Shown piece after piece: positions 1 to 28,613 of a stretch of DNA of 31,601 nucleotides. How positions within the stretch are numbered: the stretch's first letter is position 1; every line of letters starts with the position of its first letter. Below the pieces are notes generated by a model. That model did no database searches and was not told the origin of the DNA. It saw nothing but the letters and a program-made list of their open reading frames with translations. Source of the DNA: an uncultured Dictyoglomota bacterium (lineage in GTDB: Bacteria; Dictyoglomota; Dictyoglomia; Dictyoglomales; Dictyoglomaceae); contig CAZZIO010000012.1 in assembly GCA_964654465.1 (NCBI GenBank), positions 1-31,601 on the forward strand, read 5' to 3'. The position numbers and the translations under genes are program-made.

Positions 1-51
1 TTGAAGGCTATTAATATATTAGAGAAATATGTAGGGGGAGAAAAAAAATGA
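1..51 (+). CDS. 3' end of upstream gene (partial, ...LKAINILEKYVGGEKK*), probably BREX-4 BrxP (PAPS reductase/DUF4007)
   Basis: Frame 1 is open from base 1 to TGA at 49-51, overlapping the brxC ATG (ATGA, 48-51). Identity is inferred only from canonical type 4 BREX gene order. Confidence 0.5.
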   Translation: MKAINILEKYVGGEKK

Positions 52-3000
52 GATATGAAGAAATAATTGGCCTTCATGAATATTTTCAGCCAGTTTATGA
101 TATCATTCAAGAACCAAAAAACTACTGGAAACAGTTTATTCCAACAAAATCTTTTTTAGAAATATTAGAGAAATTTCTTAATTCATTAGAAGCAACAAAT
201 CCTAAGGATAGAAAATCTATTTGGATTCAAGGAACATATGGAACAGGAAAAAGCCATGCAACAGGTGTAATAAAACATCTTTTATGGGATGATCCTTCTG
301 AAATAGATGATTATCTCAGAAATATTGAAAAAGTACAATTAAGAGAGAGACTTAAAAATTTTAGAAAAGAAAATAGAGTACTCCCTGTTACTCTAAAAGG
401 TATTTCTGGTATATATTCTCCAAAAGAATTTAGCTTAATAATTGAAATAGCGGTTAAAGAATCCTTAAAAAAGTACAACATTTCAGTGATAGCAGAAAGT
501 GAATTTGATAAATATTTAAAATACATAGATGATCCAAAAATCAATTGGCAAGATGTTATAGAGGGAAATCCACATTTAAAAAGCCTTGTTGGCGATATAA
601 ATGGTCTTAAAAATAAATTACATCAGAATGATCCTGAAATAATAAAATTAATAGAGGAAGCATTAGGAGATTTAAAAATTGTTCATCCCAATATAGAGGA
701 TTGGCTTAGTGAAACACTGAAAAATTTAAGTGATCAAGGTATAAAATATATGACCATATATTGGGATGAATTTACTCCTCTTTTAGAGCTTTCTCAAAGC
801 CCTGCACTGCTTAATATTCTTCAAAATATAGCAGAAAAAAGTTTCAATGAAAATATATTTCTTTTTATAATATCTCACAGACACCCTCAACAAACTCAAA
901 TTGAAAAAGAAGATCAAGAAAAAGTATTAGGAAGATTTTTAAGCATAAACTACTTTATGGAAAATATTACCACGTTCCATATAGTTTCGAAAACTATAGA
1001 CAAAAAGAGAGAGGAAGATTGGAAAAAATTAAGAGATAATATTTATAACACGTATCCTGGATTAAATAAAGTATTAAATAAGCTCGTACCAGACAATACA
1101 GAGACCGCAAAAGTATTAAAAGATTTATTTCCTATCCATCCATACACAGCTCAACTTGCGGTAGGAATTTCAAGATACATAGGATCCACAGAAAGAAGCA
1201 TCTTTAGCTTCTTATATGATGAAGAAAAAGGTTTTATAAATTTCATAAAGAATTACCCAGATAAAAATAATGTATACCTCTTGACAGCAGATAAACTGTG
1301 GGATTACTTCATAGATGATTTAAAAAGAAGACAAGATGATAAAATAGGAAATATTTTATCAAAATATTATTCTTATCATGATTCTTTAAAAAATAAAGGT
1401 GAAGAATATCTGACCATCTTCAAAGGCATACTAATTCTAAATCTTCTACAATCAATAATTACTTTAACTGACGAATCATCTTTATTCATACCCAAACGAG
1501 AAAACATAGAAGACATGTTTTTAGGAACCCACTATAGAGACCACATAGATCAAGTTTTAGATTATATCGACAAAAATATAATTCCTAAAACCCCAGATGG
1601 ATTATATCGAATATTCCAAACTCCTCTCCCAGAAGAAGAATTAAGTAGGGAAAAAGAATCTGCAAGAAGAGAATTTGAAGATATAACTAAATTAATAAAT
1701 GATGATACTAAAAACTCTCTGTTAGATACCATTAAAAACAACCTTTTAAGAGAACCGAATCTAAATATATACTGGGCAGGACTTTCTGAAAATGAGATCT
1801 TAAGAAAAATAGACAGAGATTATAGAAATTCATATGAAATAAATATTGCTCTTTTCCTCCCAAAAATCAATGAGGAAATATCAATAATCAAAAAAAATAT
1901 AAGGAAGATAATAAATGGAAATCCAAAAGCTCGAAATATAGTATTTGTAGTATCAAATAGGGAATTTGGAGAGCAAGACTATGAGAGATTATTAGAGTAT
2001 ATCGCAAGGAAAAAAGTAGCTTATAAACACTCTTTTAATGAAGAAGCCCAAAACAACGAAAAATATATAGATAAATTGATCAATATATGGATTGAAAAAG
2101 TTGAGAAAGATTTTGTTAACATATTATTTAGGGATAAAGAAGAAAAGATAACTTTCTCATCAATAGCAGATAAAATCAATAAGGATTATTCAAAAGAAAT
2201 ATTTACCTCAGGATTAGAAAATATCGAAGGTTTAACTAAAAATAGAAATCTTTGGACATTTAGAAATTCAATAAAATACGCTAAAACATTTCTTACAGTT
2301 GAGAATAGAAAGCAATTAGAAGATGAATTAAAAACCGCTTTAGATAAGCCAATATTAGAAATATTAAAATCTAAAAGTGGTGAGTATATTGTTAACAGCA
2401 ATTTCGAATTTTACAACAATATAGATCCAGATCACCCAACCTTTAAGATTTTCAAAGAGGTAGAAAACAGAATAAAAGAACATGCTGGTAAAACCTTCAA
2501 CTTAGGTGAATTATTAGAATTTTTAAAAGAACCTCCATATGGTATTTATCCTAATATAATACATTATGCCTTATTAGGATTCGTTTTAAGACCACATACA
2601 AATAAATTATATGAGACAGGAACAGGCAAAAAAGTAAACCCAACAGTTATGGAAGATAAAATCAAAGATATTTTTGAATATTTTACTAAGGGGAAAGAAA
2701 AAGAAAAGTTAGAAGTAAGGCTTGGAACTCAAAATGAGTTAGAACTTACTGAAATTTTAAAAGATATTTTTGGATTAAAGGAGGCTGAAAATCTAAATAA
2801 AGCGAAGTGGGAAATAAGAAATTGGATTAAAGAAGTAAATCTACCTATTTGGAGTTTAAAATATTTACCACAACAAAACGAAGGTGTAACAATAGCTATT
2901 AAAACAATTGAATATTTAAGTAAAAGTATCGATAAAGAATTAAGCGAAGAGAATGTTATAAAATATCTTCAATTATTTAAGAATGTAAAAACTGATTTAA

Positions 3001-4226
3001 AACTAATTTTGAAGAAAGAAAAAGTAAAAGAAGGATTTAAGAATTGGTTATTAACTCAGCAAAAAGAGGTAAAAATTAATGAAGAAGAAATAGAAGAAGT
3101 AATAGATTACCTATATAAGCACATGCAAGAGGAAGTTGCGTTATGGGATGAAAAAAATGTACTTTTAAAATTGAAGGACTGGGCGAAAGAGAAAGACAAA
3201 GAGAGATATAAAATTGAATTTATAAACAATTTATGTAATATATTTAATCTGCAGAAAAGAGATAATATTCAAGAGCTAAGGGAAGATATCAAGAATTATA
3301 TAAATAACAATTTAAGATATCCCTTGTGGAGCATAAAGTATGTTTTAAAACTTGATGAAATAAACCACATAATCAATTTCTTGGAAGAGTTTATAAGAAG
3401 TAATAAAGATCCATCTCAAGAAGATATAATAAACTTCTCTAATTTACTTCCTACATGTGAAAAAATCTTGTATTTAAATCTTAATCCAGAAACAGCGGAA
3501 AAAGGCATCCAGGAATTACTAAAAACAAATAGTAAAAAATTGTTAGATAATAATGAAATTAATGACTTTTTAGATTTTACAAGGGAAAATCTAAAAAAGG
3601 ATATTTACTTATGGGAAGAAAAAGATTTAAAAAATTCTCTTACTTTGTATGAATTTCTAAAACTAATAGCAGAGCTCTTTAATATAGATAAAAATTACAT
3701 AAAGATACCAGATGATCTAAAAATAAAAATAAAAAATCAAGTTACGAATAAGATATATCCCTTCTGGGCCGTTGGATTAATAGATGATAATTTAGTTAAG
3801 AAAACAACCGAGGAACTATCATATTATATAACATCAGATAAAAACTATTCATTAACCGACATAGAAAGTTTATACCAAATGCTTGAAAATAATAAAGAAA
3901 AAATTAAATCCATTTGGGAATCCACTCAGATAGAAAAATTATATAAAGAATGGTTGAGAGAGATTTTAAAAACCACGGAAGATGTATCTAAAATAGTAAG
4001 TGAGATTAAAGCCAAAATACGAAACGAAGATTACTACTGGAAAAAGACTGTCGTAGAAAATCTAATTCTGAAAGAAAAAGAAAATCTCATAAGAATATTG
4101 AACAAAGAGAAAAAGGAAAAAATAGCACAAAAGATAAAAAATACTAATAGAGACTTAAGAGAAATATTAGTAAAACTCATAGATAAATATCCCCAAATTA
4201 TTTCTGATCTAGAGGAACTTCTTTAA
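48..4226 (+). CDS. brxC: BREX P-loop ATPase BrxC (type 4 / SspC-like), 1392 aa, with C-terminal helical repeats
   Basis: Walker A GTYGTGKS, Walker B TIYWDEF, LFPIHPYT and ERSIFSFL motifs typical of BrxC/PglY-like ATPases; directly upstream of pglZ. Confidence 0.85.
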   Translation: MRYEEIIGLHEYFQPVYDIIQEPKNYWKQFIPTKSFLEILEKFLNSLEATNPKDRKSIWIQGTYGTGKSHATGVIKHLLWDDPSEIDDYLRNIEKVQLRERLKNFRKENRVLPVTLKGISGIYSPKEFSLIIEIAVKESLKKYNISVIAESEFDKYLKYIDDPKINWQDVIEGNPHLKSLVGDINGLKNKLHQNDPEIIKLIEEALGDLKIVHPNIEDWLSETLKNLSDQGIKYMTIYWDEFTPLLELSQSPALLNILQNIAEKSFNENIFLFIISHRHPQQTQIEKEDQEKVLGRFLSINYFMENITTFHIVSKTIDKKREEDWKKLRDNIYNTYPGLNKVLNKLVPDNTETAKVLKDLFPIHPYTAQLAVGISRYIGSTERSIFSFLYDEEKGFINFIKNYPDKNNVYLLTADKLWDYFIDDLKRRQDDKIGNILSKYYSYHDSLKNKGEEYLTIFKGILILNLLQSIITLTDESSLFIPKRENIEDMFLGTHYRDHIDQVLDYIDKNIIPKTPDGLYRIFQTPLPEEELSREKESARREFEDITKLINDDTKNSLLDTIKNNLLREPNLNIYWAGLSENEILRKIDRDYRNSYEINIALFLPKINEEISIIKKNIRKIINGNPKARNIVFVVSNREFGEQDYERLLEYIARKKVAYKHSFNEEAQNNEKYIDKLINIWIEKVEKDFVNILFRDKEEKITFSSIADKINKDYSKEIFTSGLENIEGLTKNRNLWTFRNSIKYAKTFLTVENRKQLEDELKTALDKPILEILKSKSGEYIVNSNFEFYNNIDPDHPTFKIFKEVENRIKEHAGKTFNLGELLEFLKEPPYGIYPNIIHYALLGFVLRPHTNKLYETGTGKKVNPTVMEDKIKDIFEYFTKGKEKEKLEVRLGTQNELELTEILKDIFGLKEAENLNKAKWEIRNWIKEVNLPIWSLKYLPQQNEGVTIAIKTIEYLSKSIDKELSEENVIKYLQLFKNVKTDLKLILKKEKVKEGFKNWLLTQQKEVKINEEEIEEVIDYLYKHMQEEVALWDEKNVLLKLKDWAKEKDKERYKIEFINNLCNIFNLQKRDNIQELREDIKNYINNNLRYPLWSIKYVLKLDEINHIINFLEEFIRSNKDPSQEDIINFSNLLPTCEKILYLNLNPETAEKGIQELLKTNSKKLLDNNEINDFLDFTRENLKKDIYLWEEKDLKNSLTLYEFLKLIAELFNIDKNYIKIPDDLKIKIKNQVTNKIYPFWAVGLIDDNLVKKTTEELSYYITSDKNYSLTDIESLYQMLENNKEKIKSIWESTQIEKLYKEWLREILKTTEDVSKIVSEIKAKIRNEDYYWKKTVVENLILKEKENLIRILNKEKKEKIAQKIKNTNRDLREILVKLIDKYPQIISDLEELL

Positions 4227-6566
4227 ATGGACAATATAAATGACTTGTTAAGAACAATTGAGAAAGATAGGAAAACATCGAGTATAACTTATAATAGATT
4301 TCCTGTAAGGTTTATATTGTTAAATAATTACTGGGATCTAAAAAATCTTATAAATGCGCTACGATCTATTTTAGATATAGATTTCTTACATTTAACAGAT
4401 TTTGATATATTTAAATATTATAACGATGCATGGATCACCATATATGATATAATAAATTTAATAAATAATCTTAATCCCCAAAAAGATTATCTTCTCTTAT
4501 CGATATCAGAATATTGCAGGTTTCTCTCTGATGATAGCTTTTACTCTCTTTTAAGTAGTATTATGAGTATAGAAAACACTCAAAATAACCTTGAAAGAAG
4601 AATATATATACCATTAATAGGAATAAAAAATAAATTTGAAAAGATCTTTTTTGATAAATATCCAAGAAGAAGAGAGATAATACCTTTTTGGATATTAGAA
4701 GGGAAAAGAGAAAAATACAATTTATATTTCATTAACTTTTTAGATAAAGCAGAAACTCAAGACACACTTATTATCGAAAATTCAAAAGACTTTCTAAATA
4801 TATGGGAAAAGAATTTAAATAACTATCTTAATATTGTATGTCTTTCTAAAACATTAAATACACACTCTGACCATGTAATAAGTGATGATATATTTGATGT
4901 TTACAAAATTAAAAATTATAAAGAATACTTAAACCATCTATTTTACATTAATATCCCCATAGAATACAAAGAAGAAGAGAAAGACAATTGGGAAATATTA
5001 TGTAAAACACTACAAAATAAAAAATTCACAAACTTTTATGAATTAACAGAAGATCTTCTAAATGTTAAAAAGATCAATATAACAGACCTATTAAAGCTTT
5101 GGGTTAAAAATGATAAGTTCCATTTATGGCTTCTAAAGAATTATATAATAAACAAGGAAGAATACAAAGAAACTTATGCATCAAGAGTTCTTAAATCCAT
5201 AGAAAGCTACGAAATAAAAGAAATTTTAAGTAAATATTACACCCTCATCTTTGAAGATTCAAAACCTAAAAATGATATTTTAGAAGAAAGAAGTAATACC
5301 CTCAAAAATCTATTAAAAGAAGATATAAATAATATAGAGCCTATAATCTTAGAAATTGATAAAATTCTCAAAGAAAAAAGTAATATTTTACCTCCAGACA
5401 AGTTTAAAATCTATTTAACTGGAACCACATATTTCGAAAAATCATGGATTATGCAAAATTACGATAAAGTAGAAAACTTAAAAGAACTATATCCTGAACT
5501 TTACTATTACTTAGAAAAAGATGTTAAAATTGTGAATTTAAAACCAGACCAAAATTGGATTTTAGATTACTTTAAAGAATACCATATCTCGAGATTAAAA
5601 AATAAGCCTACAGAAAGACTATTAGAAATTCTTAATGAAAAAAATAGAAATGAAGATACTTTTTACGAATGGTATCATTCCTTTCCTAAAGTTAATAATT
5701 ACAAAATAAAAGATGAATATGAAAAATTATGGATTGATGCTTTATCCTTAGAATTTCTACCTTTAATAGCAGGAATATTAGAAGAAAAAGGATACAAAAT
5801 AGAAGCTCATATAGTAGTATCTAATCTCCCTACAATAACAGAGATAAATAAATTTGAAGTAATTGAAAGAATAGATACTCTAGATAAATTTATCCACGAA
5901 AAAAAAGATCCAAATATATATCCAGGACTGATTAAAGAGATGGAAATAATAAAGAATATAATAAAAAACAAACTTCTAACTGGAAGTGATAATTTTGTTA
6001 TATTATCAGATCATGGATTTACTGCCTTTTCCAATAAAGTTTTACAAAATCAGAAACTTCCAGAACTTAAGGTAAAAGAAAATGAGCCAAGGTATGCTGT
6101 ATTAGAGAAAGATATAGCTCTTAAAGCGAAAGAAGATATAATAGTTTATGACCATGATGATAAAAAATATGTTATAGCATTAAAATACACCTCTTTTTCC
6201 TATCCTCAATCTCTTGAAACACATGGAGGTGCAACTCCAGAAGAAGTGTTAGTACCTATTATTTATGTGACAAAATCAAAAGTAAAGGAAAAAATACCAT
6301 CTTATAAAATTGATATACCAGATAAAGAAGTTAGTATTAGAAATCCTCTTCTAATTTTCTACATCACTCCGTTTATAGAAGATGTCGTAGTTAAATACAA
6401 AGGTGAAAAGTTTGAACCCATATATTCAGAAGAAAAAAAGTGTTATACAATTAATTTAAGTAAACTCAAACCTGGTACCTATGAATTAACTTTTCATATA
6501 AGAGGTTATGAGGAAAAACATAAAATTATAATAAAAGGAGGCATACAAGAAAAAGAGTTATTATGA
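4227..6566 (+). CDS. pglZ: BREX-4 type PglZ alkaline-phosphatase-superfamily protein
   Basis: PglZ motifs LWIDALSLEF, LPTITEINK, ILSDHGFT and HGGATPEEVLVP; C-terminal Ig-like tail; ATG abuts the brxC stop (TAAATG). Confidence 0.92.
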   Translation: MDNINDLLRTIEKDRKTSSITYNRFPVRFILLNNYWDLKNLINALRSILDIDFLHLTDFDIFKYYNDAWITIYDIINLINNLNPQKDYLLLSISEYCRFLSDDSFYSLLSSIMSIENTQNNLERRIYIPLIGIKNKFEKIFFDKYPRRREIIPFWILEGKREKYNLYFINFLDKAETQDTLIIENSKDFLNIWEKNLNNYLNIVCLSKTLNTHSDHVISDDIFDVYKIKNYKEYLNHLFYINIPIEYKEEEKDNWEILCKTLQNKKFTNFYELTEDLLNVKKINITDLLKLWVKNDKFHLWLLKNYIINKEEYKETYASRVLKSIESYEIKEILSKYYTLIFEDSKPKNDILEERSNTLKNLLKEDINNIEPIILEIDKILKEKSNILPPDKFKIYLTGTTYFEKSWIMQNYDKVENLKELYPELYYYLEKDVKIVNLKPDQNWILDYFKEYHISRLKNKPTERLLEILNEKNRNEDTFYEWYHSFPKVNNYKIKDEYEKLWIDALSLEFLPLIAGILEEKGYKIEAHIVVSNLPTITEINKFEVIERIDTLDKFIHEKKDPNIYPGLIKEMEIIKNIIKNKLLTGSDNFVILSDHGFTAFSNKVLQNQKLPELKVKENEPRYAVLEKDIALKAKEDIIVYDHDDKKYVIALKYTSFSYPQSLETHGGATPEEVLVPIIYVTKSKVKEKIPSYKIDIPDKEVSIRNPLLIFYITPFIEDVVVKYKGEKFEPIYSEEKKCYTINLSKLKPGTYELTFHIRGYEEKHKIIIKGGIQEKELL

Positions 6567-7996
6567 ACAAACTCAGTAATTTAGATGAAAAAATTAAAAA
6601 AGTTTTTCCTGATGTATCCCTCTTAAAAATTAAAGAGAATTATAGCGTTTTTAATGGTAAAAATCTTCCATCTTTTATTAAAGATTGGCTTATTAGAAAG
6701 TTTTCTGATGATGAAGGAAAGGTATATAAAGAAGAAATAATAGACTTCATTGATAAACATATTCCCCAAAAAGAATCAGCCAAAAAACTTAAAGGTACTC
6801 TCATGTATAATAAAGAATCTATAGATATATTAACAAGAGTATCAATAGAACCTGACATTAAAAAAGGAATTTTCAAATTCTCCATTCCTGACCTTGAAAT
6901 AAAAGATTACGAAGGAAAAGTTATGGAACATGTCATTGAAAAACATCCAGAATTGAAAGGTGGAGAAATTTGGGGAGTTTTTACTCTTAGATATATAGCA
7001 GATACGAAAGAAAACTTTATCGCCATAATAGGATATAAGCCTTTTAAACCTTATGACATAGACTTAGAATACTTTAAGGAAGGAAGAAAAGAATTTGCTC
7101 TTGAAGAATGGGTAGATTTATTAATAAGATCTATGGAATATAATCCTATTGGATTTGCTAGTTTTGAACAAAAGTTACAATTTATATCAAGACTCCTTGT
7201 CTTTGTAGAGCCAAGATTAAATATGATCGAACTTGCCCCAAAAGGAACAGGAAAATCATATATTTTTAATAATCTTAGTAAGTATGGATGGTGTGTAAGT
7301 GGAGGAAAGGTAACAAGAGCAAAAATGTTTTACGATATGGGAAAAAATATTCCTGGATTCATAACAAGATATGATTTTGTAGCTTTTGATGAAGCACAAA
7401 CCATAGAATTCTCAAACGATGAAGAAATGAGAGCTGCATTAAAAAGTTACTTAGAATTGGGCAAATTTACTATTGGAAACTACCACGGAGAATCAACAGC
7501 TGGATTTATACTTCTTGGTAATATTCAACTAGATAGCAATTTAAATCCTATAAATCCCATTTATTTTAAAGATTTACCAGAATCTTTTCATGAATCAGCC
7601 TTATTTGATAGGTTTCACGGTTTTATAGAGGGCTGGAGACTTCCAAGAATTAGAGAGGACTTAAAAATAAGTGGATATGCATTAAATGTTGAGTATTTCA
7701 CAGAAATATTGCATAGTCTAAGAGATCGCTCAGAATACTCTTCTATTGTAGACGATATGTTAGAAATACCTCCTAAAGCTGATACAAGAGATACTACCGC
7801 CATAAAGAAATTAGCCACAGGTTATCTGAAATTATTATTTCCTCATGTGAAAGATCCAAGTGACATTGATAAAGATGACTTTGAAATTTTTTGCTTAAAA
7901 CCTGCTCTTGAAAAAAGAGGCATAATAAGAAAACAACTACACTTGATGGATCCTGAATATAAAGAGGAACTACCTGATATAAAGGTGAAGAAGTAA
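6563..7996 (+). CDS. brxL: BREX BrxL-like AAA+ ATPase (short form, no Lon protease domain)
   Basis: EEWVDLLIRSM, RLLVFVEPRLNMIELAPKGTGKS (Walker A), YDFVAFDE (Walker B), SALFDRFHGFIEGW; ATGA overlap with pglZ. Confidence 0.9.
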   Translation: MNKLSNLDEKIKKVFPDVSLLKIKENYSVFNGKNLPSFIKDWLIRKFSDDEGKVYKEEIIDFIDKHIPQKESAKKLKGTLMYNKESIDILTRVSIEPDIKKGIFKFSIPDLEIKDYEGKVMEHVIEKHPELKGGEIWGVFTLRYIADTKENFIAIIGYKPFKPYDIDLEYFKEGRKEFALEEWVDLLIRSMEYNPIGFASFEQKLQFISRLLVFVEPRLNMIELAPKGTGKSYIFNNLSKYGWCVSGGKVTRAKMFYDMGKNIPGFITRYDFVAFDEAQTIEFSNDEEMRAALKSYLELGKFTIGNYHGESTAGFILLGNIQLDSNLNPINPIYFKDLPESFHESALFDRFHGFIEGWRLPRIREDLKISGYALNVEYFTEILHSLRDRSEYSSIVDDMLEIPPKADTRDTTAIKKLATGYLKLLFPHVKDPSDIDKDDFEIFCLKPALEKRGIIRKQLHLMDPEYKEELPDIKVKK

Positions 7997-7997
7997 A

Positions 7998-8558
7998 ATG
8001 ATGGACTCAGATTTTTGGGAACTCGAAAATCTGTTAAGTGAAATAGATGAATTTCTAAACAAATATGAAGAAAATAAAGAAGAAATTCAAGAAATTATAT
8101 TGTCTTTCATAGAAAGAATAGAAAAAACCAATAAAGAGCTTATGAATATTTCAAAAAAATTAGAATATATTACTTTAAAGCTAAAAAATCTTGTTAATAA
8201 CTCCCAATCACCTTCTAAATATGAAGAAAAAGGTAATAGAATTAAAGGAGAAATAACTCCCAAAGCTTTTTTTAGGCTCCATATACTTCTCACATTATAT
8301 GAATTAGGAGGTAAAGCCCCCGCCTTAGAGGTCCATAAAAAATTAGAAAAAAAATTAAATGATCTATTAACCCAAAAGGATAAAGAACTATTACCCTCAG
8401 GAACTGTAAGATGGATTAAAAATGTAGATTGGTGTAGACTAATATTAGTACATGAAGGCTTGATGAAAAGAGATTCTCCTCGTGGTATATGGGAACTTTC
8501 TGAGAAAGGATATAAATATATAAAAAAATATTTAGAAGAAATCAATGGACGAGAATGA
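7998..8558 (+). CDS. Coiled-coil + Mrr N-terminal-type winged-helix protein with no nuclease domain
   Basis: C-terminal half ILLTLYELGG...LLPSGTVRWIKNVDWCRLILVHEGLM...RGIWELSEKG matches the Mrr_N wHTH pattern; heptad-like N-terminus; starts 1 nt after the brxL stop. Confidence 0.8.
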   Translation: MMDSDFWELENLLSEIDEFLNKYEENKEEIQEIILSFIERIEKTNKELMNISKKLEYITLKLKNLVNNSQSPSKYEEKGNRIKGEITPKAFFRLHILLTLYELGGKAPALEVHKKLEKKLNDLLTQKDKELLPSGTVRWIKNVDWCRLILVHEGLMKRDSPRGIWELSEKGYKYIKKYLEEINGRE

Positions 8559-9549
8559 TTTATACTTAGAAAGCCTATTAGATGAGATTAATAACTTTTT
8601 AAAAAGCAAAGAGCAAGAAGAAGCACAAACAAAACCCCAACAAGTATTCCCTAAGAAAAGTAAATTTAAACTTAAAGAACACAAAGATGATTTTGAGGAG
8701 ATTCATTTTAAAGACCCCTCAAAATATGAATTACTCTCTCCTATTCAAGAAAAAGAATTATTTAAAAGAGTTGAACAAGGAGATAAAGAAGCAAAAGAAA
8801 AGTTAATACTGTCCAATCTCAAATTAGTATATTCTATTGCAAAAAGATATAAAGGAAGAGGTTTAGAGTTCTCAGACTTAATACAAGAAGGATGCATAGG
8901 TCTCATAAACGCTGTTGAAAAATTTGATTGGAGAAAAGGTTATAAATTCTCTACCTACGCAACGTGGTGGATAAAACAAGCAATTACAAGGGCTATTGCA
9001 GAAAAGGGTGGAACAATTTATGTTCCTATCCATCTTCAAGAAAAGATAAATTATATTAAAAGATGTAGAAAAATACTTATGGAAAAGTTAAATAGAGAAC
9101 CAACTATCCACGAATTATCAACATACTCAGGATATAGTAGAGATTCATTAAAGTCTCTCATGGATTGTAATTTTACAACTATTCCATACGATGTTCAAAT
9201 AGAGAATCTTTCAGAGGAAGAATTTGAGAGTATCTATCCCTTAATAGACCAAAACGAAGATTTTACATTAACTATAGATGACATTTTACCTAATAATGAC
9301 CAAAATTATGACCTCTTCTCCCAAATGGAAATAACATTTATAAAAAAGATTATAGATGAGTTATTAAATACTCTATCAGAAAGAGAAAGAGAAATTATAT
9401 ACCTAAGATTTGGCTTTAAAGATGGAACTCCCAAAACCCTCGAAGAAATAGGTAAAATATTTGGAATAACAAGAGAAAGGGTAAGACAGATAGAGGCAAA
9501 AATTATAAAGAAATTTAAGCATCCTTCAAAAAGAAAATACCTAAAATAG
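8545..9549 (+). CDS. RpoD/RpoS-like sigma-70 family RNA polymerase sigma factor (accessory copy)
   Basis: Region 2 [58 protein letters not shown]; region 3 LNREPT; region 4.2 [20 protein letters not shown]; overlaps the previous gene by 14 nt. Confidence 0.93.
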   Translation: [334 protein letters not shown]

Positions 9550-9580
9550 GGTAGCAAGTAATTTAAACTTGCTACCCTAT
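9546..9580. terminator. Bidirectional intrinsic terminator
   Basis: Perfect 14-bp stem ATAGGGTAGCAAGT / ACTTGCTACCCTAT with a 7-nt loop, between convergent genes and flanked by T/A runs. Confidence 0.85.
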
Positions 9581-9588
9581 AATCTTTT

Positions 9589-10251
9589 TTACCAAACTAT
9601 CTTTACAAAGGCTGTTTTCCCTTCTTGAGCCACATAATCCCTTAAAACATTAGAAAATCTTATCATCATTTTATCTCTGTTTTTCATTGTTAACTTCTTC
9701 AAAAATGGATATGGCTTTAAATTTACATATACTCCTTGCAATTCTATACTCACGTCTCTCTTCAGATCATTTATAAGCATTACTTCAATAGACAAATCAT
9801 TTATTTCAATTGATTGATAGAATTTATTAAAAATACTACTGTTTAGCCCTTCAAAAAGAGAATTGTTGAAGTTAACATATAGATTATCATCCTTAAAAGA
9901 AAATGATATTACCCTATCCTCTACTTCTTCACCTTTTGTAAGGGGAATTTCAATATCTGCCACATAAAAGCTTTGAAGATTATTCTCTTCATACCTTACA
10001 TTTTCTACATTATCAAAATACTCTTCTAATACACTGGTAATTTCATCCTTATTTTCCTTGAAAGTATCCTTAGAGACAATTTCAAGTCTCAACAATGAAT
10101 TAACCCAAATCATATCAGTTTTACTATCATTAACAAAATCATATAGGTCACTAAGATAAATATCTGAAGAGATGTCCAACTTACAGCCTGATAATGTGAT
10201 AAAAAGACATATAATCAAAGAAACCATTATTAGCTTTTTCAATAAACCCAC
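9589..10251 (-). CDS. Hypothetical lipoprotein
   Basis: GTG start, basic N-terminus, hydrophobic stretch and lipobox LSGC. Confidence 0.8.
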   Translation of the reverse strand: MGLLKKLIMVSLIICLFITLSGCKLDISSDIYLSDLYDFVNDSKTDMIWVNSLLRLEIVSKDTFKENKDEITSVLEEYFDNVENVRYEENNLQSFYVADIEIPLTKGEEVEDRVISFSFKDDNLYVNFNNSLFEGLNSSIFNKFYQSIEINDLSIEVMLINDLKRDVSIELQGVYVNLKPYPFLKKLTMKNRDKMMIRFSNVLRDYVAQEGKTAFVKIVW

Positions 10252-10278
10252 CCCCTAATTAATTTTTTTATTATACTC

Positions 10279-10827
10279 CTACATCACTTCTATACTAAAT
10301 ATAAAACTATATGTAATTGTTTTTGCTGAATCCTTTATATATACAGGAATCTTTATTCCTACATTATAAATTCCCCTCTTAAATTCAGAATATATTTCTC
10401 CTTCTATAGAATAATAATAACTGCCCAAATAGCTATCATATTCATATTCCAAAAGGTCATAAGGAATCATATATGCTTTAACTTTCCCATAAGGAAGAAT
10501 ATTACTTACATAAAAAGGATTGTAACATGTATAGTAATAAACATCATCTGGGTTAAAACACGCTAAGTAAGTAGATTTTCCTGATGAGTAAGTAAAGGTT
10601 GCGTTACGCCAATTAATTTGCAATTCACTGCTTATCTTATTCTCCAATTCATAATATATCTTGTTTTCGTAAAATACAAAGCTTATTTTTATCAAATCAT
10701 CCTCAAAATAAAGATTTTCAGACTCCACCGGATAAAGCATCTTTACCTTTGCATGGGGCAACAAACTACATCCTGACAAAATAGCTAAAAGTAAGAATAA
10801 TATAAATATTATTAAATATTTCTTCAT
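10279..10827 (-). CDS. Hypothetical Tyr-rich lipoprotein
   Basis: Strong SD (AGGAGGTG) upstream; signal peptide MKKYLIIF... with lipobox LSGC. Confidence 0.82.
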   Translation of the reverse strand: MKKYLIIFILFLLLAILSGCSLLPHAKVKMLYPVESENLYFEDDLIKISFVFYENKIYYELENKISSELQINWRNATFTYSSGKSTYLACFNPDDVYYYTCYNPFYVSNILPYGKVKAYMIPYDLLEYEYDSYLGSYYYSIEGEIYSEFKRGIYNVGIKIPVYIKDSAKTITYSFIFSIEVM

Positions 10828-11008
10828 TTTACATCACCTCCTGTAATTAATAATAACCAGTCAAAGGGTCAAAACCTGACCTTATAGAAAAATGTAAAAA
10901 AGAATTTAATTATGGAAAATGAAAGATTAATTTCTGTTTTTTAAAAGTCAAATTTTTATTTTTTATGTTAAAATGAACTTAATAAATTTTGGGTTTTACA
11001 AAGCATCT

Positions 11009-12283
11009 ATGGATATAAAAGGTAAAATAATTATCGGAGATTCAAGAAAAATGAAAGAAGTAGATGATGAGAGTGTGGATCTTATTATCACCTCTCCTCC
11101 TTATTGGCATATAAAAGATTACGGTAAGCCTAATCAAATAGGTTATGGTCAAACCCTACACGAATACTTAAAAGATCTTTATTATGTATGGAATGAATGT
11201 TATAGGGTATTAAGAAAAGGAAGCAGATTATGCATTAATATAGGCGATCAATTTGCAAGATCCATAATTTATGGGAAATATAAAGTTATACCTTTACATG
11301 CGGAAATTATAACTCAGTGTGAAAATTTAGGTTTTGATTATATGGGAGCCATTATATGGCAAAAGAAAACGACCATGAATACTACTGGTGGTGCAAATAT
11401 AATGGGATCTTTCCCTTATCCGCCAAATGGTATTGTAGAGATTGATTATGAATTTATCCTTATTTTTAAAAAACCAGGGAAAACTAAAAAAGTTTCAAAA
11501 GAAATTAAAGAATTATCTTCCTTAACAAAAGAAGAATGGAAAGAATACTTCTCAGGACATTGGAATTTTGGGGGAGCAAAACAAATAGAACATGAAGCCA
11601 TGTTTCCTGATGAATTGCCCCGAAGACTTATTAGAATGTTTTCTTTTGTGGGAGATACTATATTAGACCCATTTCTTGGAAGCGGTACTACAGTAAAAGT
11701 TGCCTTAGAATTGGGAAGAAATGCAATAGGATATGAGATAAATAAACATTTTCTTGAAATTATTAAGAAAAAAATTGGAATGAACGAAAATTTATTAATA
11801 AAACCATTTAATGTAGAAATTATTGAGAGAGAAGAAGATATTATACTGCCAGAAATCAATTATATACCATTAATACAAGATGCCAAACCTCAGGTTGATC
11901 CCAAAAAATTCAGATTTGAAGGAGATAGATTATATAAAGTTGTTGATATTATAGATGAGGAAACATTACAGGTGGATACAGGTCTTTTTGTTAAATTTTT
12001 GGGTGTAAAAATTATAAGAAAAGAAGAAACCTTAAAATATTTAGAAAACTACCTCTTAGGAAAGAATATCATTCTAAAGTTTGACCCTAATTTTATTGAA
12101 GAAGATTATGTAAAGGCATATGTATATCTTAAAAATAAAATCTTTATAAATGCATATCTTATAAAATCAGGTTTAGGTGTTCCAGATATCACTATTCAAC
12201 ACAAGTACAAAGAAAAATTTATAAACCTTTGGAGGGAAATAGAAAATGCCAAAAGAATGGATATTAAATATGGCAACAAATAG
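11009..12283 (+). CDS. Beta-class amino-DNA methyltransferase (SPPY, probably N4-cytosine) fused to a C-terminal thermonuclease (SNase)-like domain
   Basis: Motif IV ITSPPY precedes motif I ILDPFLGSGTT (beta order); HEAMFP motif; C-terminal YKVVDIIDEETL...VKFLGV...AYVYL...FINAYLIKSGLG. The start is more likely ATG 11009 than 10973. Confidence 0.88.
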   Translation: MDIKGKIIIGDSRKMKEVDDESVDLIITSPPYWHIKDYGKPNQIGYGQTLHEYLKDLYYVWNECYRVLRKGSRLCINIGDQFARSIIYGKYKVIPLHAEIITQCENLGFDYMGAIIWQKKTTMNTTGGANIMGSFPYPPNGIVEIDYEFILIFKKPGKTKKVSKEIKELSSLTKEEWKEYFSGHWNFGGAKQIEHEAMFPDELPRRLIRMFSFVGDTILDPFLGSGTTVKVALELGRNAIGYEINKHFLEIIKKKIGMNENLLIKPFNVEIIEREEDIILPEINYIPLIQDAKPQVDPKKFRFEGDRLYKVVDIIDEETLQVDTGLFVKFLGVKIIRKEETLKYLENYLLGKNIILKFDPNFIEEDYVKAYVYLKNKIFINAYLIKSGLGVPDITIQHKYKEKFINLWREIENAKRMDIKYGNK

Positions 12284-12914
12284 ATGGGGCTTAAATAAAA
12301 AAGATAACGTTGGGCCTGTATCATTATGGATAAGAGAATGTGATCCTAAAAATCCTAATGAGTGGGAAATTTTCTATTATAGAAAACTCGAAGAGTTGTT
12401 AAAATCAAAAAATATTGAACTCTCTCCTGAAAGTTATATAAACGAATTAGGTAGGAAACTGTATATAAAGATATCTGAGGTAATGAGAGCAGAAATTGAA
12501 GAAATTACTGAAGATGATTGTATAAATTACATTAAAAATTTATTAATAAATAGAACTTTTGAAGGATACATAACTGAAAAAGAAACCATTTACAGCCAAT
12601 TAAAAAAACTTCTAAGTATAGATATAAAGCCAGCACCAGACAAATGGGATAGATTATATAATGTAGATTTCTACATAGAAATTGCAGGTAAATATATAGG
12701 AATACAAATAAAGCCAATAACTTATGAACAAACCCCAGAAATTTATAAATGGAAAGAATGGTTAAGCAGAACTCATGAAAAATTTGAGAAAGAAATTGGT
12801 GGTAAGGTTTTTATAATATTCTCTATAAAAAAAGATGGTAGAAAAGAAATCTATAATAAAGAAATAATAGAAGAAATTAAAAATGAGATTGAGAGGTTAA
12901 GAAAACAAAAATAA
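12246..12914 (+). CDS. MjaI-family type II restriction endonuclease
   Basis: N-terminal WILNMATNRWGLNKKDNVGPVS and catalytic-like DRLYNVDFYI...IGIQIKP; overlaps the MTase 3' end by 38 nt. Confidence 0.82.
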   Translation: MPKEWILNMATNRWGLNKKDNVGPVSLWIRECDPKNPNEWEIFYYRKLEELLKSKNIELSPESYINELGRKLYIKISEVMRAEIEEITEDDCINYIKNLLINRTFEGYITEKETIYSQLKKLLSIDIKPAPDKWDRLYNVDFYIEIAGKYIGIQIKPITYEQTPEIYKWKEWLSRTHEKFEKEIGGKVFIIFSIKKDGRKEIYNKEIIEEIKNEIERLRKQK

Positions 12915-16030: not shown

Positions 16031-16444
16031 TTATAAAATACTTTTAAGCCAAGATTTAAAATTATATAGGTCTCTTTTTATAAGATCCCAGTTCCTGAGG
16101 AGATTATCTTTTAAAAGATTAATCTTCTCAGGGACAATCTCGTAAGTATATGCATGTCTAAATATATGTCTAAAAACTCTAAGCTCATCAAGAACAGCAT
16201 AGCTTTCTTTTGATAAAATTTTAGGTCTAATTCCATAAATCTCAACAGTCATTCTCTTTAGAAGTTCTTTATGATAATATTCAAAGTTTTCTATTTCATT
16301 TTCAAAGGTTTTGGCTATCTCTCTAAATAAATCCTCAAAAGCATTATAAAGGTTATGTAGATTGTATGCCAAGTAAATAGTCTTTTCTTTTGTTTCCAGC
16401 ACTGTTTAGTATCCTAAAAGTAAACTAATTTTCTCCTTTTTCAT
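16031..16444 (-). pseudogene. HEPN (HepT/DUF86-like) RNase toxin, disrupted
   Basis: ATG at 16444 overlaps the antitoxin stop; reads MKKEKISLLLGY* with an in-frame TAA, then continues LHNLYNAFEDLF...FRHIFRHAY (Rx4H motif). Confidence 0.8.
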
Positions 16445-19946: not shown

Positions 19947-22900
19947 TTAAATTATGCACTCTATCTTTTCATATTCTCCATCTCTTAAATAAAGAGAGTA
20001 TGGATACTCAAGTACTTCTTTACTTATCTCTTCTTTTTCTCCATTTCTTTTATACAATATATATTTCTTTACTTTTATATCCTTACCCAACAAGTCTTTT
20101 CTTTCTTGATTTATAAAATATATGAGAGTATTAAAGAATTTTATTACAAAAGTATTTTTGGGTACAAATATCTTTTCCTCGTTTCCATTTCCAAAATATG
20201 TTACCTCTTCATCATCTGTTGTAAATAAAAAGCTAGGAATTGAGGGTTCTGGTTTAAAACAAAGTCTATTATTTTCATCAAGATAAAAGGGATTTCCTCC
20301 TAATGTCATAAGAATAAGCATGTTATAAAATTCCGCTGTACTTCCAGAAAGTCTCGCTGAAAAACCAGCACCATGCAAATTTTCATCAGGATTTGCACTA
20401 CTCACAATAAAAGAGACATTTTCAAATATGCTCCTTTTATATACTTCAGGGCTCATAAATGGTACAAGACACTTTTTCATATCCTCATAGTAGGTATCAA
20501 ATTCTTTTGATCTTAAAATCTCTAAAAGATATTTGTACTCAAGATGGAGAAATACACTCTCATTTTCAAGCCATCCAGGTAGAAAGGCCTTTATTCTTCC
20601 AATTTCCAATGGGGCATCTTTCAATGATTCATTCACTTTATACATCTTCAATTTCTTATCATAGAGATCACTTTCTTTTATTCTCTTAATTATTTCCTTC
20701 TTTTTATTAGGGTCTTTCTCTACTTTTAGATAATGCACCTGACCCTCAAGAAAGAGAGGTAACTCATTTCTTTCAAATCTTTTAGGCTTTATTACCTTCT
20801 TCCCCTCTTTTTCTAATATTTCATAATCTATTAGATCATAATAGAAATATGTATGGTACAATCCTTTATCTTTAATAAATGCTTTCTCAAGTCCTATATC
20901 TATTTTCTCTAAAAAAACTTTTATCCTGTCAACAACATCAGATAGCTTTACTGTTATCTCATCTCCACTTATCCCCAATCTTGTTCTTTCTCTATAAAAC
21001 TCTCTTAATTTTGAGCTTTCATCCCAGAAATTAAAATTAGAAATTTCCCCTATTAGATTTTTCTTTGTAATTTCAAAAAGACCATTAATCAAATCCATGA
21101 CTTCAATTGGAATTTTTATCTCTCTATCTGATAGACGATATTTATCTATCCATCTTATTAATAAAAGAATTAACCTTTTAAGTTCAAAAGTCTCATTTAC
21201 AGAAGATCCAAAAAGTCCAGGAAGCCCATTTAAAGCATCATTCCAACCTGGTTTTCCAGCCTCCATCTCTATTCCCACATTATCAGGATCAAGAGTTGAA
21301 TATTTTACTACTGCAAGGGTGATCAACTTAGAGATCAAGTTAGTATAATATATATCCCCTTTACCATATTTTGTCCTTACTTTATTGGGTTCTATCTTCC
21401 TGGATTTTATGAGTTTTTCTTTTTCTTCATCCCTTTTTAGTGATCTATACTGTCTTACACCTTTATCTGTTAAAACATACCTTTCCTCTCTTGGTAAAAC
21501 AATTTCTGAATTATCATAATAGGTAAAGATATTTAAATCCAAAAGTAGATTAGCCATTTTATCTGGAAAAACAGACTCATAACTTTCTATAAGATCTAAA
21601 TTGTAGAACCAATGATCAACCCAATATCCTTCTCCATGTTCTGCATCTTCAATCTTTTTAGAATTTGTAAGAAGAAATGATATAAACTCTATTAAATCCC
21701 CCTTTTTCAATCTATATTTGTATTTTTCAAGAATCCTTATAACATCATAAGGAATAAAAGGCCTTTTTAAGATCTCATAAAGCTCCTTTTCTATATCTTC
21801 ATCTAACCAGTCTTTTAATTGATCTAATTTTTCCTCAGATAACAAGTATTTAATTCCTTTAATCACAAGAGGATTATATCCATCCAGTTGAATAAGATTT
21901 ACAAAATACCATATATTAAAATAGTCTACACTTGGATTGAAATATATATCATTTCTTCTATTTTGATTTATATCTCTATAATTGGCATTACCTTGAGAAA
22001 AATAATTAGCTTCAAGTCTAAAAAAGTTATAATCTCTCTCCAAATCTCCATGTTTTCTTGAGAAAAGATAAATTATATCTTTCTTACCCCCATAATCCAA
22101 AGTAACAGGAAGACCACCCCTTAATATATTGTCAAGAAAATTCTGTTTAGCATAAGAATTAAATTCTTTTGAAGAACTATAAACAAAGGAATTATCAATA
22201 ATACTTCTTATAAGTATCTCATTCTCTTCTGCCTTTCTTTCAATAAACTCTTTTTTAGAATATCCATTAATAATGGAATTCAATCTCTCTACAGAGTCAG
22301 ATCTTCCTATAATAGAGATAATACTCTTTTCCTCATAAGGCGAAAGAGAAATTTGAGAATAAGAAAAAGCTGAGGGGGTCCTATCACCATAAAACAAGGT
22401 ATTAATCTTAAAATCTTCCTTTGCAAAATTAAATGGATATGAAAAATCATCAGCTGGATAGAATATTAAAGACGGCTCTACAATTATAGGAAGAAGTTTA
22501 TTATCTTCTACAAAGGAAAAGTAAAAATGCCCATTTTTTATAATCTCAACTTCAGTTACATCTTGAAAGGTTGTATATAACCTATAAAAAGGAGCATTAT
22601 TTTCTCCATTATCAACCCGATACCATGCTTCTATTGTTCTGGACATATTTTTCATAACCTCATTTGTAAGTCCATAAGGTAAAAACTGTGGTATTCCATC
22701 AATAATTTCTAAATCAATATCTTTATTTTTAAGATTCTTAATAAATAATACCCTTATTAAAGCTCCTATAGGCTCATTGGGAAGAGTAAAATAATTTACT
22801 TTACATGCAATATTAAGAGTATTATTTACCTCATATATGGTAAGATCATATGGTGTAATACTCATATGATTTTCTTTTTCAAATTTTTGATTTTCAAAGG

Positions 22901-23201
22901 ATTCTCTAAAAGGCTCATAAATAACTCCATTTATCTTTATAAAAGTTCTAAATCCATATATAGGGGTCAATCTATAAGCTTTATTAGCAGGATGAAACTC
23001 AAGGATAGCACCATCTTTACTTTCAAATCCAAAACTTGCAATACACTGTGCTCTATTCACATAAAAACACCACATAGGAATACCCATAATTCCAGAAATA
23101 CCAGGAAGGAAACTGGAAAAAGGATATGCATAGTTATAATTGTATATATTAAAGGTTAAATCTTTATCTTTATCCACTTCGTATTTAACTTTGCTATTCA
23201 T
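19947..23201 (-). CDS. Large glycoside phosphorylase, GH161-like (beta-1,3-glucan phosphorylase; often annotated cellobiose phosphorylase)
   Basis: 1084 aa; motifs FSSFLPGISGIMGIPMWCFYVNR, SRKHGDLERDYN, QGNANYRDINQNRR, HGEGYWVDHW, EAGKPGWNDALNGLPGLFGS and ARLSGSTAEF; SD AGGAGG. Confidence 0.8.
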   Translation of the reverse strand: MNSKVKYEVDKDKDLTFNIYNYNYAYPFSSFLPGISGIMGIPMWCFYVNRAQCIASFGFESKDGAILEFHPANKAYRLTPIYGFRTFIKINGVIYEPFRESFENQKFEKENHMSITPYDLTIYEVNNTLNIACKVNYFTLPNEPIGALIRVLFIKNLKNKDIDLEIIDGIPQFLPYGLTNEVMKNMSRTIEAWYRVDNGENNAPFYRLYTTFQDVTEVEIIKNGHFYFSFVEDNKLLPIIVEPSLIFYPADDFSYPFNFAKEDFKINTLFYGDRTPSAFSYSQISLSPYEEKSIISIIGRSDSVERLNSIINGYSKKEFIERKAEENEILIRSIIDNSFVYSSSKEFNSYAKQNFLDNILRGGLPVTLDYGGKKDIIYLFSRKHGDLERDYNFFRLEANYFSQGNANYRDINQNRRNDIYFNPSVDYFNIWYFVNLIQLDGYNPLVIKGIKYLLSEEKLDQLKDWLDEDIEKELYEILKRPFIPYDVIRILEKYKYRLKKGDLIEFISFLLTNSKKIEDAEHGEGYWVDHWFYNLDLIESYESVFPDKMANLLLDLNIFTYYDNSEIVLPREERYVLTDKGVRQYRSLKRDEEKEKLIKSRKIEPNKVRTKYGKGDIYYTNLISKLITLAVVKYSTLDPDNVGIEMEAGKPGWNDALNGLPGLFGSSVNETFELKRLILLLIRWIDKYRLSDREIKIPIEVMDLINGLFEITKKNLIGEISNFNFWDESSKLREFYRERTRLGISGDEITVKLSDVVDRIKVFLEKIDIGLEKAFIKDKGLYHTYFYYDLIDYEILEKEGKKVIKPKRFERNELPLFLEGQVHYLKVEKDPNKKKEIIKRIKESDLYDKKLKMYKVNESLKDAPLEIGRIKAFLPGWLENESVFLHLEYKYLLEILRSKEFDTYYEDMKKCLVPFMSPEVYKRSIFENVSFIVSSANPDENLHGAGFSARLSGSTAEFYNMLILMTLGGNPFYLDENNRLCFKPEPSIPSFLFTTDDEEVTYFGNGNEEKIFVPKNTFVIKFFNTLIYFINQERKDLLGKDIKVKKYILYKRNGEKEEISKEVLEYPYSLYLRDGEYEKIECII

Positions 23202-28444: not shown

Positions 28445-28613
28445 TTCTTATATCCTCCGTCTGATCCTAAAATATAATAACATATATAGGATATCATAAT
28501 AAAAAGAAGACTATCAATCCATTAATTTTCCAAATATTACTCAATTTGTTATTTATTAAAAATTGTGTCATACTATTTATGGGACAAAATTATCCCCAAT
28601 TAGGAGGTATATT

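Follow-up and report, generated by a model that had tools for sequence, protein, structure and literature searches.

The last two genes of a bacteriophage exclusion (BREX) operon from the bacterial phylum Dictyoglomota, which encode a small winged-helix protein and a SigA/RpoD-like sigma factor, are the subject of this study. The window, i.e., the whole stretch of DNA that was analysed, is 31,601 nucleotides long and corresponds to positions 1-31601 of contig C12 of genome G000, window base 1 being contig base 1; the phylum consists of hot-spring bacteria and comprised 11 genomes in total. Judged from gene content and order, positions 1-9580 are the distal part of a type-4 (phosphorothioate-type) BREX operon, for which phosphorothioation is predicted, and by the synteny of the loci compared here its last two cistrons are co-inherited with the BREX-4 cassette. 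The presence with BREX-4, always where such a sigma was seen, of a sigma of its own points to an undescribed link between BREX-4 defence and transcription. That this sigma is owned by the cassette and, with the winged-helix protein as its partner, acts as a transcription-level arm of BREX-4 is the reading preferred here, tentatively and with slightly less than even confidence.

A total of 88 loci (8 from genomes and 80 from metagenomes) were fetched with a profile of the winged-helix protein, and a sigma gene was directly downstream in 10 of them (L007, L008, L010, L011, L022, L023, L024, L037, L041 and L043). Two of these, L022 and L023, match the window with 100% identity, and the sigma gene of L011 is cut by the contig end. 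No sigma was detected at BLASTP E <= 1e-4 in the remaining 78 loci, many of which are short contigs. The gene brxL lies immediately upstream in all nine sigma loci with upstream sequence, and brxC and pglZ are also there where the stretch is long enough. Linkage of the sigma to BREX in other genomes, on which the preliminary description of this DNA had staked its reading beforehand, was thus observed, with the sigma after brxL wherever upstream sequence exists. Within the phylum, a BREX-4 PglZ above the cut-off was found in 5 of the 11 genomes (G000, G007, G009, G010 and G013), with the sigma after brxL in every case, and G006, the genome of L010, likewise holds the sigma. The genome of L011 belongs to a second phylum (7 genomes). 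In a sample of 401 genomes from a third phylum, BREX-4 was found in four, and neither a sigma nor an Mrr_N gene follows brxL in any of them; a cysteine desulfurase (2 loci), OLD/UvrD-like genes or an amidase was found there instead. Two further samples from two large phyla, 401 genomes each, contained no BREX-4. These counts come from few independent loci, most of them from one small phylum and some of them from kin that are not independent.

The genes 3' of the sigma vary from locus to locus, and the sigma therefore moves with the cassette. It could be argued that the winged-helix and sigma genes merely adjoin BREX-4 and have an unrelated role in the cell, but this is very improbable and is already contradicted by synteny: the order is kept in nine other loci from two phyla with differing flanks, the sigma is absent from the genomes of the phylum without BREX-4, and the genes decay jointly in G007, in G008 and on contig C63 of G000. 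In G007 the cassette retains a brxP fragment, a split DUF4007-like gene and a sigma consisting of the N-terminus plus region 4, and in G008 nothing but adjacent PglZ and sigma fragments remains. A sigma-like fragment was also noticed at G011:C4:8147-8509 (L126), in a genome without BREX-4 PglZ; interrupted by a single TAA, it shares 45% identity with residues 118-238 and is maybe another remnant.

As for the structure of the operon, six translationally chained open reading frames (ORFs) followed by a strong terminator had been described before, and the winged-helix and sigma genes had been taken as operon members. All the junctions named there proved correct, with the reservation that just the last 16 codons of the upstream ORF are present, contig C12 having its first base at the left edge of the window. 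The TGA of this tail (49-51) overlaps the ATG of brxC (48-50) as ATGA, the TAA of brxC (4224-4226) is directly followed by the ATG of pglZ at 4227, and pglZ and brxL share an ATGA at 6563-6566. The winged-helix gene is separated from brxL by a 1-nt gap at 7997 and overlaps the sigma gene by 14 nt (8545-8558). The sole + strand terminator found in positions 1-11000 by a consensus scan, a 14-bp stem at 9546-9580 with a T run, lies after the sigma gene, between it and a convergent operon; on both strands together, 4 terminator sites were found in 1-11000, where 4.3 were expected from shuffles. Promoter-like matches in the same region numbered 59, compared with 66.1 +/- 8.4 in shuffles; they are no commoner than chance and hence give no sign of an internal promoter. 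An Rfam search of the window gave no match. Membership of the two genes in the BREX-4 operon, predicted from its layout, is supported by the overlap, the 1-nt gap and the single terminator after the sigma.

The BREX-4 core has been defined as brxPCZL (PMC12914056, in the part available). A type-4 PglZ, a BrxC/PglY ATPase and BrxL, by which BREX type 4 is recognized, were each matched here by PADLOC, Pfam and NCBIfam models (Table 1), in agreement with the identity proposed at the outset. The BrxL is of the short kind, with BrxL_N and the ATPase present and the Lon protease domain absent. The absence of PglX from the operon, also proposed earlier, was borne out by Pfam and PADLOC scans, in which no methyltransferase model matched any of its ORFs; the N6_N4 methyltransferase at 10973-12283 is part of a separate MjaI-type restriction-modification pair outside the BREX operon.

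The gene brxP is not visible in the window because the window starts at the contig end. Searches for brxP, DUF4007 and the 250-aa ORF across the 72-contig assembly gave no usable match: the best score for PF01507 (phosphoadenosine phosphosulfate [PAPS] reductase) was 21.3 bits, under the cut-off, a BrxP query matched ferredoxin-like pieces alone, and PF13182 gave no match in a search in which the controls gave none either. The 16 codons at the left edge of the window, translated as LKAINILEKYVGGEKK followed by the stop, resemble the C-terminus of a 264-aa ORF between brxP and brxC in L011. Such stand-alone DUF4007-like ORFs of relatives (249-264 aa) match the PADLOC model of the BrxP C-terminus (PDLC02511) with 148-150 bits. 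In the syntenic relatives the operon is headed by a BrxP of 792-802 aa (957 bits in L020), PAPS_reduct matches occur in the syntenic operons of G001, G002 and G003, and the full order is brxP, DUF4007-like gene, brxC, pglZ, brxL.

The operon sigma is not the housekeeping RpoD of the genome, which is a separate gene on contig C32 (499 bits) and to which it is 49% identical. With RpoD equivalog models the operon sigma reached at best 276 bits against a cut-off of 572 and stayed below every RpoD cut-off; matches to the RpoD model were found at just four places in the genome. A maximum-likelihood tree was built from 30 rows, of which 10 were BREX-linked sigmas, 10 RpoDs of the phylum and 10 further RpoDs; two partial rows were omitted. 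A branch with 100/100 support set all 10 BREX-linked sigmas apart, and their terminal branches measured 0.12-0.88, compared with at most about 0.1 for branches among the RpoDs of the phylum. By this tree the operon sigma belongs to a separate, fast-evolving clade. Similarly, between G000 and G009, G013 or G010 the BREX sigmas are 47-49% identical, whereas the RpoDs are 84-91% identical.

All of regions 1.2, 2, 3 and 4 of a primary sigma are present in the operon sigma, which consists of an N-terminal helix, a disordered linker of ~30 residues and regions 1.2-4.2, with an insertion between regions 3.1 and 3.2 that in alignments amounts to ~20 residues relative to RpoD. In the AlphaFold2 (AF2) model, the helix covers residues 3-28, residues 25-55 are below 50 in the predicted local distance difference test (pLDDT), and the usual sigma domains lie beyond. 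Among solved proteins, SigA chains gave the best match (234 bits over residues 45-334); region 1.2 also aligns with them, and PF00140 is recorded for the close relatives P0004 and P0006. Region 1.1 (PF03979) had no match in the sigma of the window, and in L011 the helix is followed by regions 1.1 and 1.2. The region 2.3/2.4 and 4.2 blocks are near-identical to those of solved SigA, with an 18-residue block and TRERVRQIE retained; we take these to be the promoter-recognition parts, assuming the contacts with DNA and core polymerase that are familiar from E. coli sigma-70.

A sigma that evolves at the pace of a defence gene, as the identities and long branches above indicate, might instead be a decoy or sensor, i.e., a bait for phage proteins that bind host SigA, the capture of which would be relayed to BREX as an infection signal. 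MzaA, the sigma-70 family protein of the MZA system, would be a precedent in name (NF041931). We consider this rather unlikely, as the core- and DNA-binding blocks are conserved beyond a decoy's need, though mimicry would also require that the surfaces attacked by phages be retained.

The preferred reading of a sigma with a winged-helix partner draws on a feature common to both proteins. The two open with the same amphipathic motif, in which acidic residues are followed by hydrophobics at a spacing of 3-4 over ~25 residues, and which is present in 10 of the 10 sigmas of the clade. Alignment of the winged-helix profile with the sigma profile by hhalign matched the first 26 columns (probability 85.8, E 5.3e-6). 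The two proteins of L007 agree in each of their first 19 residues (BLASTP E 5e-10), and their genes are almost the same over the first ~60 bases. The N-terminus of the wider winged-helix family is related and strongly conserved. A likeness of BrxC residues 84-95 to the motif lies inside the ATPase domain and was judged to be chance.

Moreover, a further BREX-4 tail, in a decayed state, was found in G000 on contig C63 (L133, 1-4430). After remnants of the PglZ C-terminus (540-772) and of BrxL (788-1107), it carries an intact ORF of 326 aa (1140-2120) in which the winged-helix protein is fused to sigma regions 1.2-2, the sigma helix being absent; a sigma 5' pseudogene with stops (2159-2398) and transposase-like fragments come after it. 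The fusion protein has exact copies on 7 contigs and no full-length relatives. The shared helix may be how winged-helix accessories plug into their partners. It was also observed that the winged-helix gene of L041 (7990-8291) and L043 (3890-4186) encodes nothing beyond the winged-helix domain, the helices having no start codon in frame, and that the sigma helix is kept at both loci.

The winged-helix protein consists of the N-terminal amphipathic helix, a long helix, a linker and an Mrr_N-type winged helix. Mrr_N was matched over residues 94-176; no further Pfam family was matched and the Mrr catalytic domain is absent. In the AF2 model (mean pLDDT 75.8), helices at 4-21 and 27-69 precede the winged helix at 91-185, which has pLDDT ~90, and a Foldseek search of this model against PDB returned generic winged-helix DNA binders alone (best E 5e-3). 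With phmmer against 1.84 billion representatives, 2141 were matched at E <= 0.001 and 708 at E <= 1e-10, so that by sequence similarity the family has at least 2141 proteins; the Atlas clusters concerned carry the name 'Mrr N-terminal domain-containing protein'. In a PADLOC scan of 51 neighbouring proteins from 29 loci, 13 had no match. Type IIG enzymes and/or HKD-Snf2 helicases were near family members in L033, L036, L055, L063, L075, L077, L081, L088 and L089, HmaB/HmaC in L061, L066, L095, L096 and L101, SspB/SspC-like proteins in L088 and L097, DndD/PbeC with a DndH-like protein in L014, another BREX type in L013 and Cas10 in L068. On account of these neighbours, the winged-helix family would be a general accessory of DNA-modification-based defence operons, and since no description of such a role for small Mrr_N proteins was found in the literature, it appears to be an undescribed one. 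Within the family, a sigma directly downstream is confined to the BREX-4 members. The winged-helix protein had previously been linked to BREX as such, but the family is far wider and stands beside many modification-based systems without a sigma. Small coiled-coil/Mrr_N proteins with a strongly conserved AFEILLEEIE-like N-terminus were also seen at the ends of Hma, type IIG/HKD-Snf2, Ssp-like, Dnd/Pbe-like and other BREX operons (L033-L101; L012-L014).

From this company another role could be proposed, in which a winged-helix-sigma heterodimer is an effector or targeting subunit that brings RNA polymerase to DNA chosen by Mrr_N (e.g., unmodified incoming DNA) or ties up core polymerase; in both cases the pair would take a direct part in immunity, not in regulation. 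According to its Pfam description, Mrr_N serves modification-dependent Mrr enzymes as their DNA-binding domain, the winged-helix family occurs almost only beside DNA-modification-based systems, and a covalent fusion of the winged-helix protein to sigma region 2 exists. The proposal is, however, entirely inferential; the winged-helix gene is missing or truncated in three sigma-bearing loci (G010, L041 and L043), G010 having the sigma and lacking both the winged-helix gene and the DUF4007-like gene, and phosphorothioate synthesis by Bacteroides BREX-4 requires BrxP and BrxC alone (PMC12914056, as far as the available part of that paper states). We therefore regard it as distinctly unlikely.

The regions upstream of brxP were compared among four relatives, and TATAAT is present in all four. 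The element GGGACAGnnTTTGACAC is common to the brxP upstream regions of G009 and G010 (L145 and L150), with 16 of 16 specified bases, and a TAnAAT-like hexamer follows 10 nt downstream. The spacing of 11 nt between TTGACA and the hexamer and a 10-bp direct repeat suggest a putative activator site. At <= 1 mismatch, seven sites were found in 10 genomes of the phylum: two before brxP, three before cas6 operons (L146, L152 and L158) and two before secreted or unknown proteins. It was therefore rejected as a BREX-specific promoter, and a single site in G002, which belongs to another phylum, was discounted as the reversed-pattern control also gave one. One of the cas6 sites is in G012, a genome without the BREX-4 sigma, so that this sigma cannot be the sole reader of the element. 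The window itself has a copy at 10866-10882 (- strand), with 3 mismatches and unchanged spacing, before a lipoprotein operon (chance expectation 0.22 per window), and the 182-aa lipoprotein encoded there has a homologue behind a G009 site (E 3e-29).

These results also bear on the possibility that the two proteins form an anti-sigma-like autoregulatory pair, in which the sigma would activate the promoter of its own cassette in positive feedback and the winged-helix protein would hold the sigma inactive until a trigger arrives. Co-transcribed rsbW-sigB and spoIIAB-sigF are precedents for such pairs, and the partner gene directly upstream of the sigma with a 14-nt overlap, the helix common to both proteins and the position of the sigma at the end of the operon under its supposed control are all in line with this possibility. 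On the other hand, the promoter-reading blocks are of the primary-sigma type with no diverged specificity, a consensus TATAAT precedes brxP at four of four loci, the element shared by two brxP regions also precedes cas6 in the sigma-less G012, and in G010 the sigma occurs without the partner. This explanation is thus considered unlikely, although it deserves some credit.

The preferred reading, i.e., a cassette-owned sigma with a winged-helix partner, could be put as follows. The sigma would bind core RNA polymerase and read ordinary -10/-35-type (SigA-type) promoters. The winged-helix protein may pair with it via the shared helix, or may compete with it for one docking site, and would thereby be a DNA-bound partner or gatekeeper of the sigma. 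Together they would give the cassette its own polymerase specificity subunit, so that BREX genes and other SigA-type promoters could be kept expressed independently of the host sigma, for example upon arrival in another host or under attack by a phage that knocks out host SigA. Several observations weigh against this. The winged-helix family mostly occurs without any sigma, and its basic role therefore needs none; its gene is missing or truncated in the three sigma-bearing loci mentioned above. Helix similarity in the window's own pair is not significant pairwise (E 0.35) and is seen at profile level only. The fusion ORF is confined to one lineage and sits within a decayed locus. Moreover, several cassettes are decaying (a truncated sigma in G007, remnants in G008 and on C63), and hence the module is not under uniformly strong selection. 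The proposal from which this study started, a BREX-4 variant with a transcription-level module, is supported in part: the structure, the core gene identities and the sigma linkage have stood, and the winged-helix family proved wider than had been supposed. Of the three candidate roles offered there for the sigma (backup, decoy and regulon driver), a private regulon has the cas6 site in G012 against it.

The coordinates of the operon and of the two-gene lipoprotein operon that converges on its terminator are compiled in Table 1.

Table 1. Features of the BREX-4 operon and the convergent operon in the window
Feature	Positions	Strand	Remarks
DUF4007-like (BrxP C-terminal) gene, tail only	1..51	+	last 16 codons and stop, remainder past the contig end
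brxC/pglY ATPase, 1392 aa	48..4226	+	PADLOC BrxC PDLC02472, 867 bits; SspC matches weaker
pglZ, type-4 subfamily, 779 aa	4227..6566	+	NCBIfam NF033445, 528.6 bits (cut-off 140)
short brxL, 477 aa	6563..7996	+	Pfam PF20442 and PF13337; TIGR02688, 504.6 bits (cut-off 329.3)
winged-helix accessory protein, 186 aa	7998..8558	+	Mrr_N PF14338, 43.3 bits (cut-off 29.5)
shared N-terminal helix coding segment, winged-helix copy	7998..8075	+	hhalign, winged-helix vs sigma profile
SigA/RpoD-like sigma factor, 334 aa	8545..9549	+	Pfam sigma-70 regions 2, 3 and 4
shared N-terminal helix coding segment, sigma copy	8545..8622	+	hhalign; motif opens all 10 clade sigmas
intrinsic terminator	9546..9590	.	14-bp stem and 7-nt loop (9546-9580), then AATCTTTTTT
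two-gene lipoprotein operon, 182-aa protein and 220-aa DUF7424 protein	9589..10827	-	converges on the BREX terminator

Several other genes of the window were noted. The type II restriction-modification pair directly after the BREX locus (10973-12914) consists of the N6_N4 methyltransferase (PADLOC MTase_II, 431 bits) and an MjaI-family endonuclease (161.5 bits). Further along are a HepT-like toxin domain protein (16031-16402, - strand), a 1084-aa ORF without a Pfam match (19947-23201, - strand), a GmrSD-type (type IV) restriction enzyme (26648-28444, - strand) and a serpin (28563-29813, + strand).

The mechanism by which BREX stops phages is, to our knowledge, not yet known, and a complete, conserved SigA-like sigma in a BREX operon offers a testable handle tying defence to RNA polymerase. 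In this phylum, with its few matches to the RpoD model, a defence cassette that brings a primary-like sigma along could also alter transcription in the host. In addition, the finding draws attention to small Mrr_N winged-helix proteins as a large family, encoded next to Hma, type IIG/Snf2, Ssp-like, Dnd-like and BREX operons. It is conceivable, though decidedly improbable, that the sigma is a working part of BREX-4 immunity rather than a regulator, and that through the shared helix it forms a heterodimer with the Mrr_N protein, which would read the modification of DNA, so that the holoenzyme would be sent to unmodified incoming DNA or polymerase withheld from it. If so, the self/non-self mark would be coupled to promoter opening, and MzaA and the sigma-HTH-like N-terminus of BrxL, as described in the available part of PMC12839542, would be related solutions.

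Among known systems, the closest is BREX type 4 itself, which is matched by BrxC, the type-4 PglZ and the short BrxL in canonical order, by the lack of PglX, and by BrxP (PAPS-reductase domain, DUF4007) in the relatives. The differences are the two additional conserved 3' cistrons, encoding the winged-helix protein and the SigA-like sigma, and the stand-alone DUF4007-like gene between brxP and brxC. A survey of type-4 neighbourhoods in 457 taxa gives a cysteine desulfurase and a zinc-finger protein as additional genes and, in the part of it available, names no sigma, although its supplements could still list one (PMC12839542); sigma is mentioned there solely as the sigma-HTH-like fold likeness of the BrxL N-terminus. 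The accessible text of PMC12914056 does not mention a sigma factor either. No description of the winged-helix/sigma arrangement in BREX-4 was found in the literature on BREX and on sigma factors in defence, and by its gene order the arrangement is rated here as a variant of BREX type 4 not previously described.

MzaA of the MZA anti-phage system (NF041931; PADLOC PDLC02203) is likewise a sigma-70 family protein inside a defence system and was the top NCBIfam match of the window's sigma (288 bits, model positions 469-711). However, this score is far under the 800-bit cut-off, and the N-terminal half of MzaA, ~460 residues, is absent here. The MzaA models did not match the winged-helix protein at E <= 0.01, and no other Mza component was found in a PADLOC scan of the 9 ORFs in 48-12914. 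Kinship with MzaA was rejected: the host RpoD scores higher on the same model (371 bits), and the match thus reflects general RpoD likeness. Compared with SigA/RpoD, regions 1.2-4.2 of the operon sigma align, but it is a separate gene in a separate clade, the helix replaces Pfam region 1.1, and the insertion of ~20 residues precedes region 3.2.

The small Mrr_N proteins without the Mrr nuclease domain (PF14338) include the winged-helix protein of the window as a member, and the BREX-4-linked members differ in that they precede a sigma copying their N-terminal helix. In Myxococcus, a CBASS-CRISPR defence island is controlled by DdvS/DdvA, an extracytoplasmic function (ECF) sigma and its anti-sigma (PMC11506125, available in part), which is similar in that a sigma serves defence loci specifically and has a partner protein. 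DdvS, however, belongs to the ECF (group 4) sigmas, has a transmembrane anti-sigma and is encoded as a regulator, whereas the sigma described here is primary-like and lies inside the BREX operon, and its putative partner is a soluble winged-helix protein.

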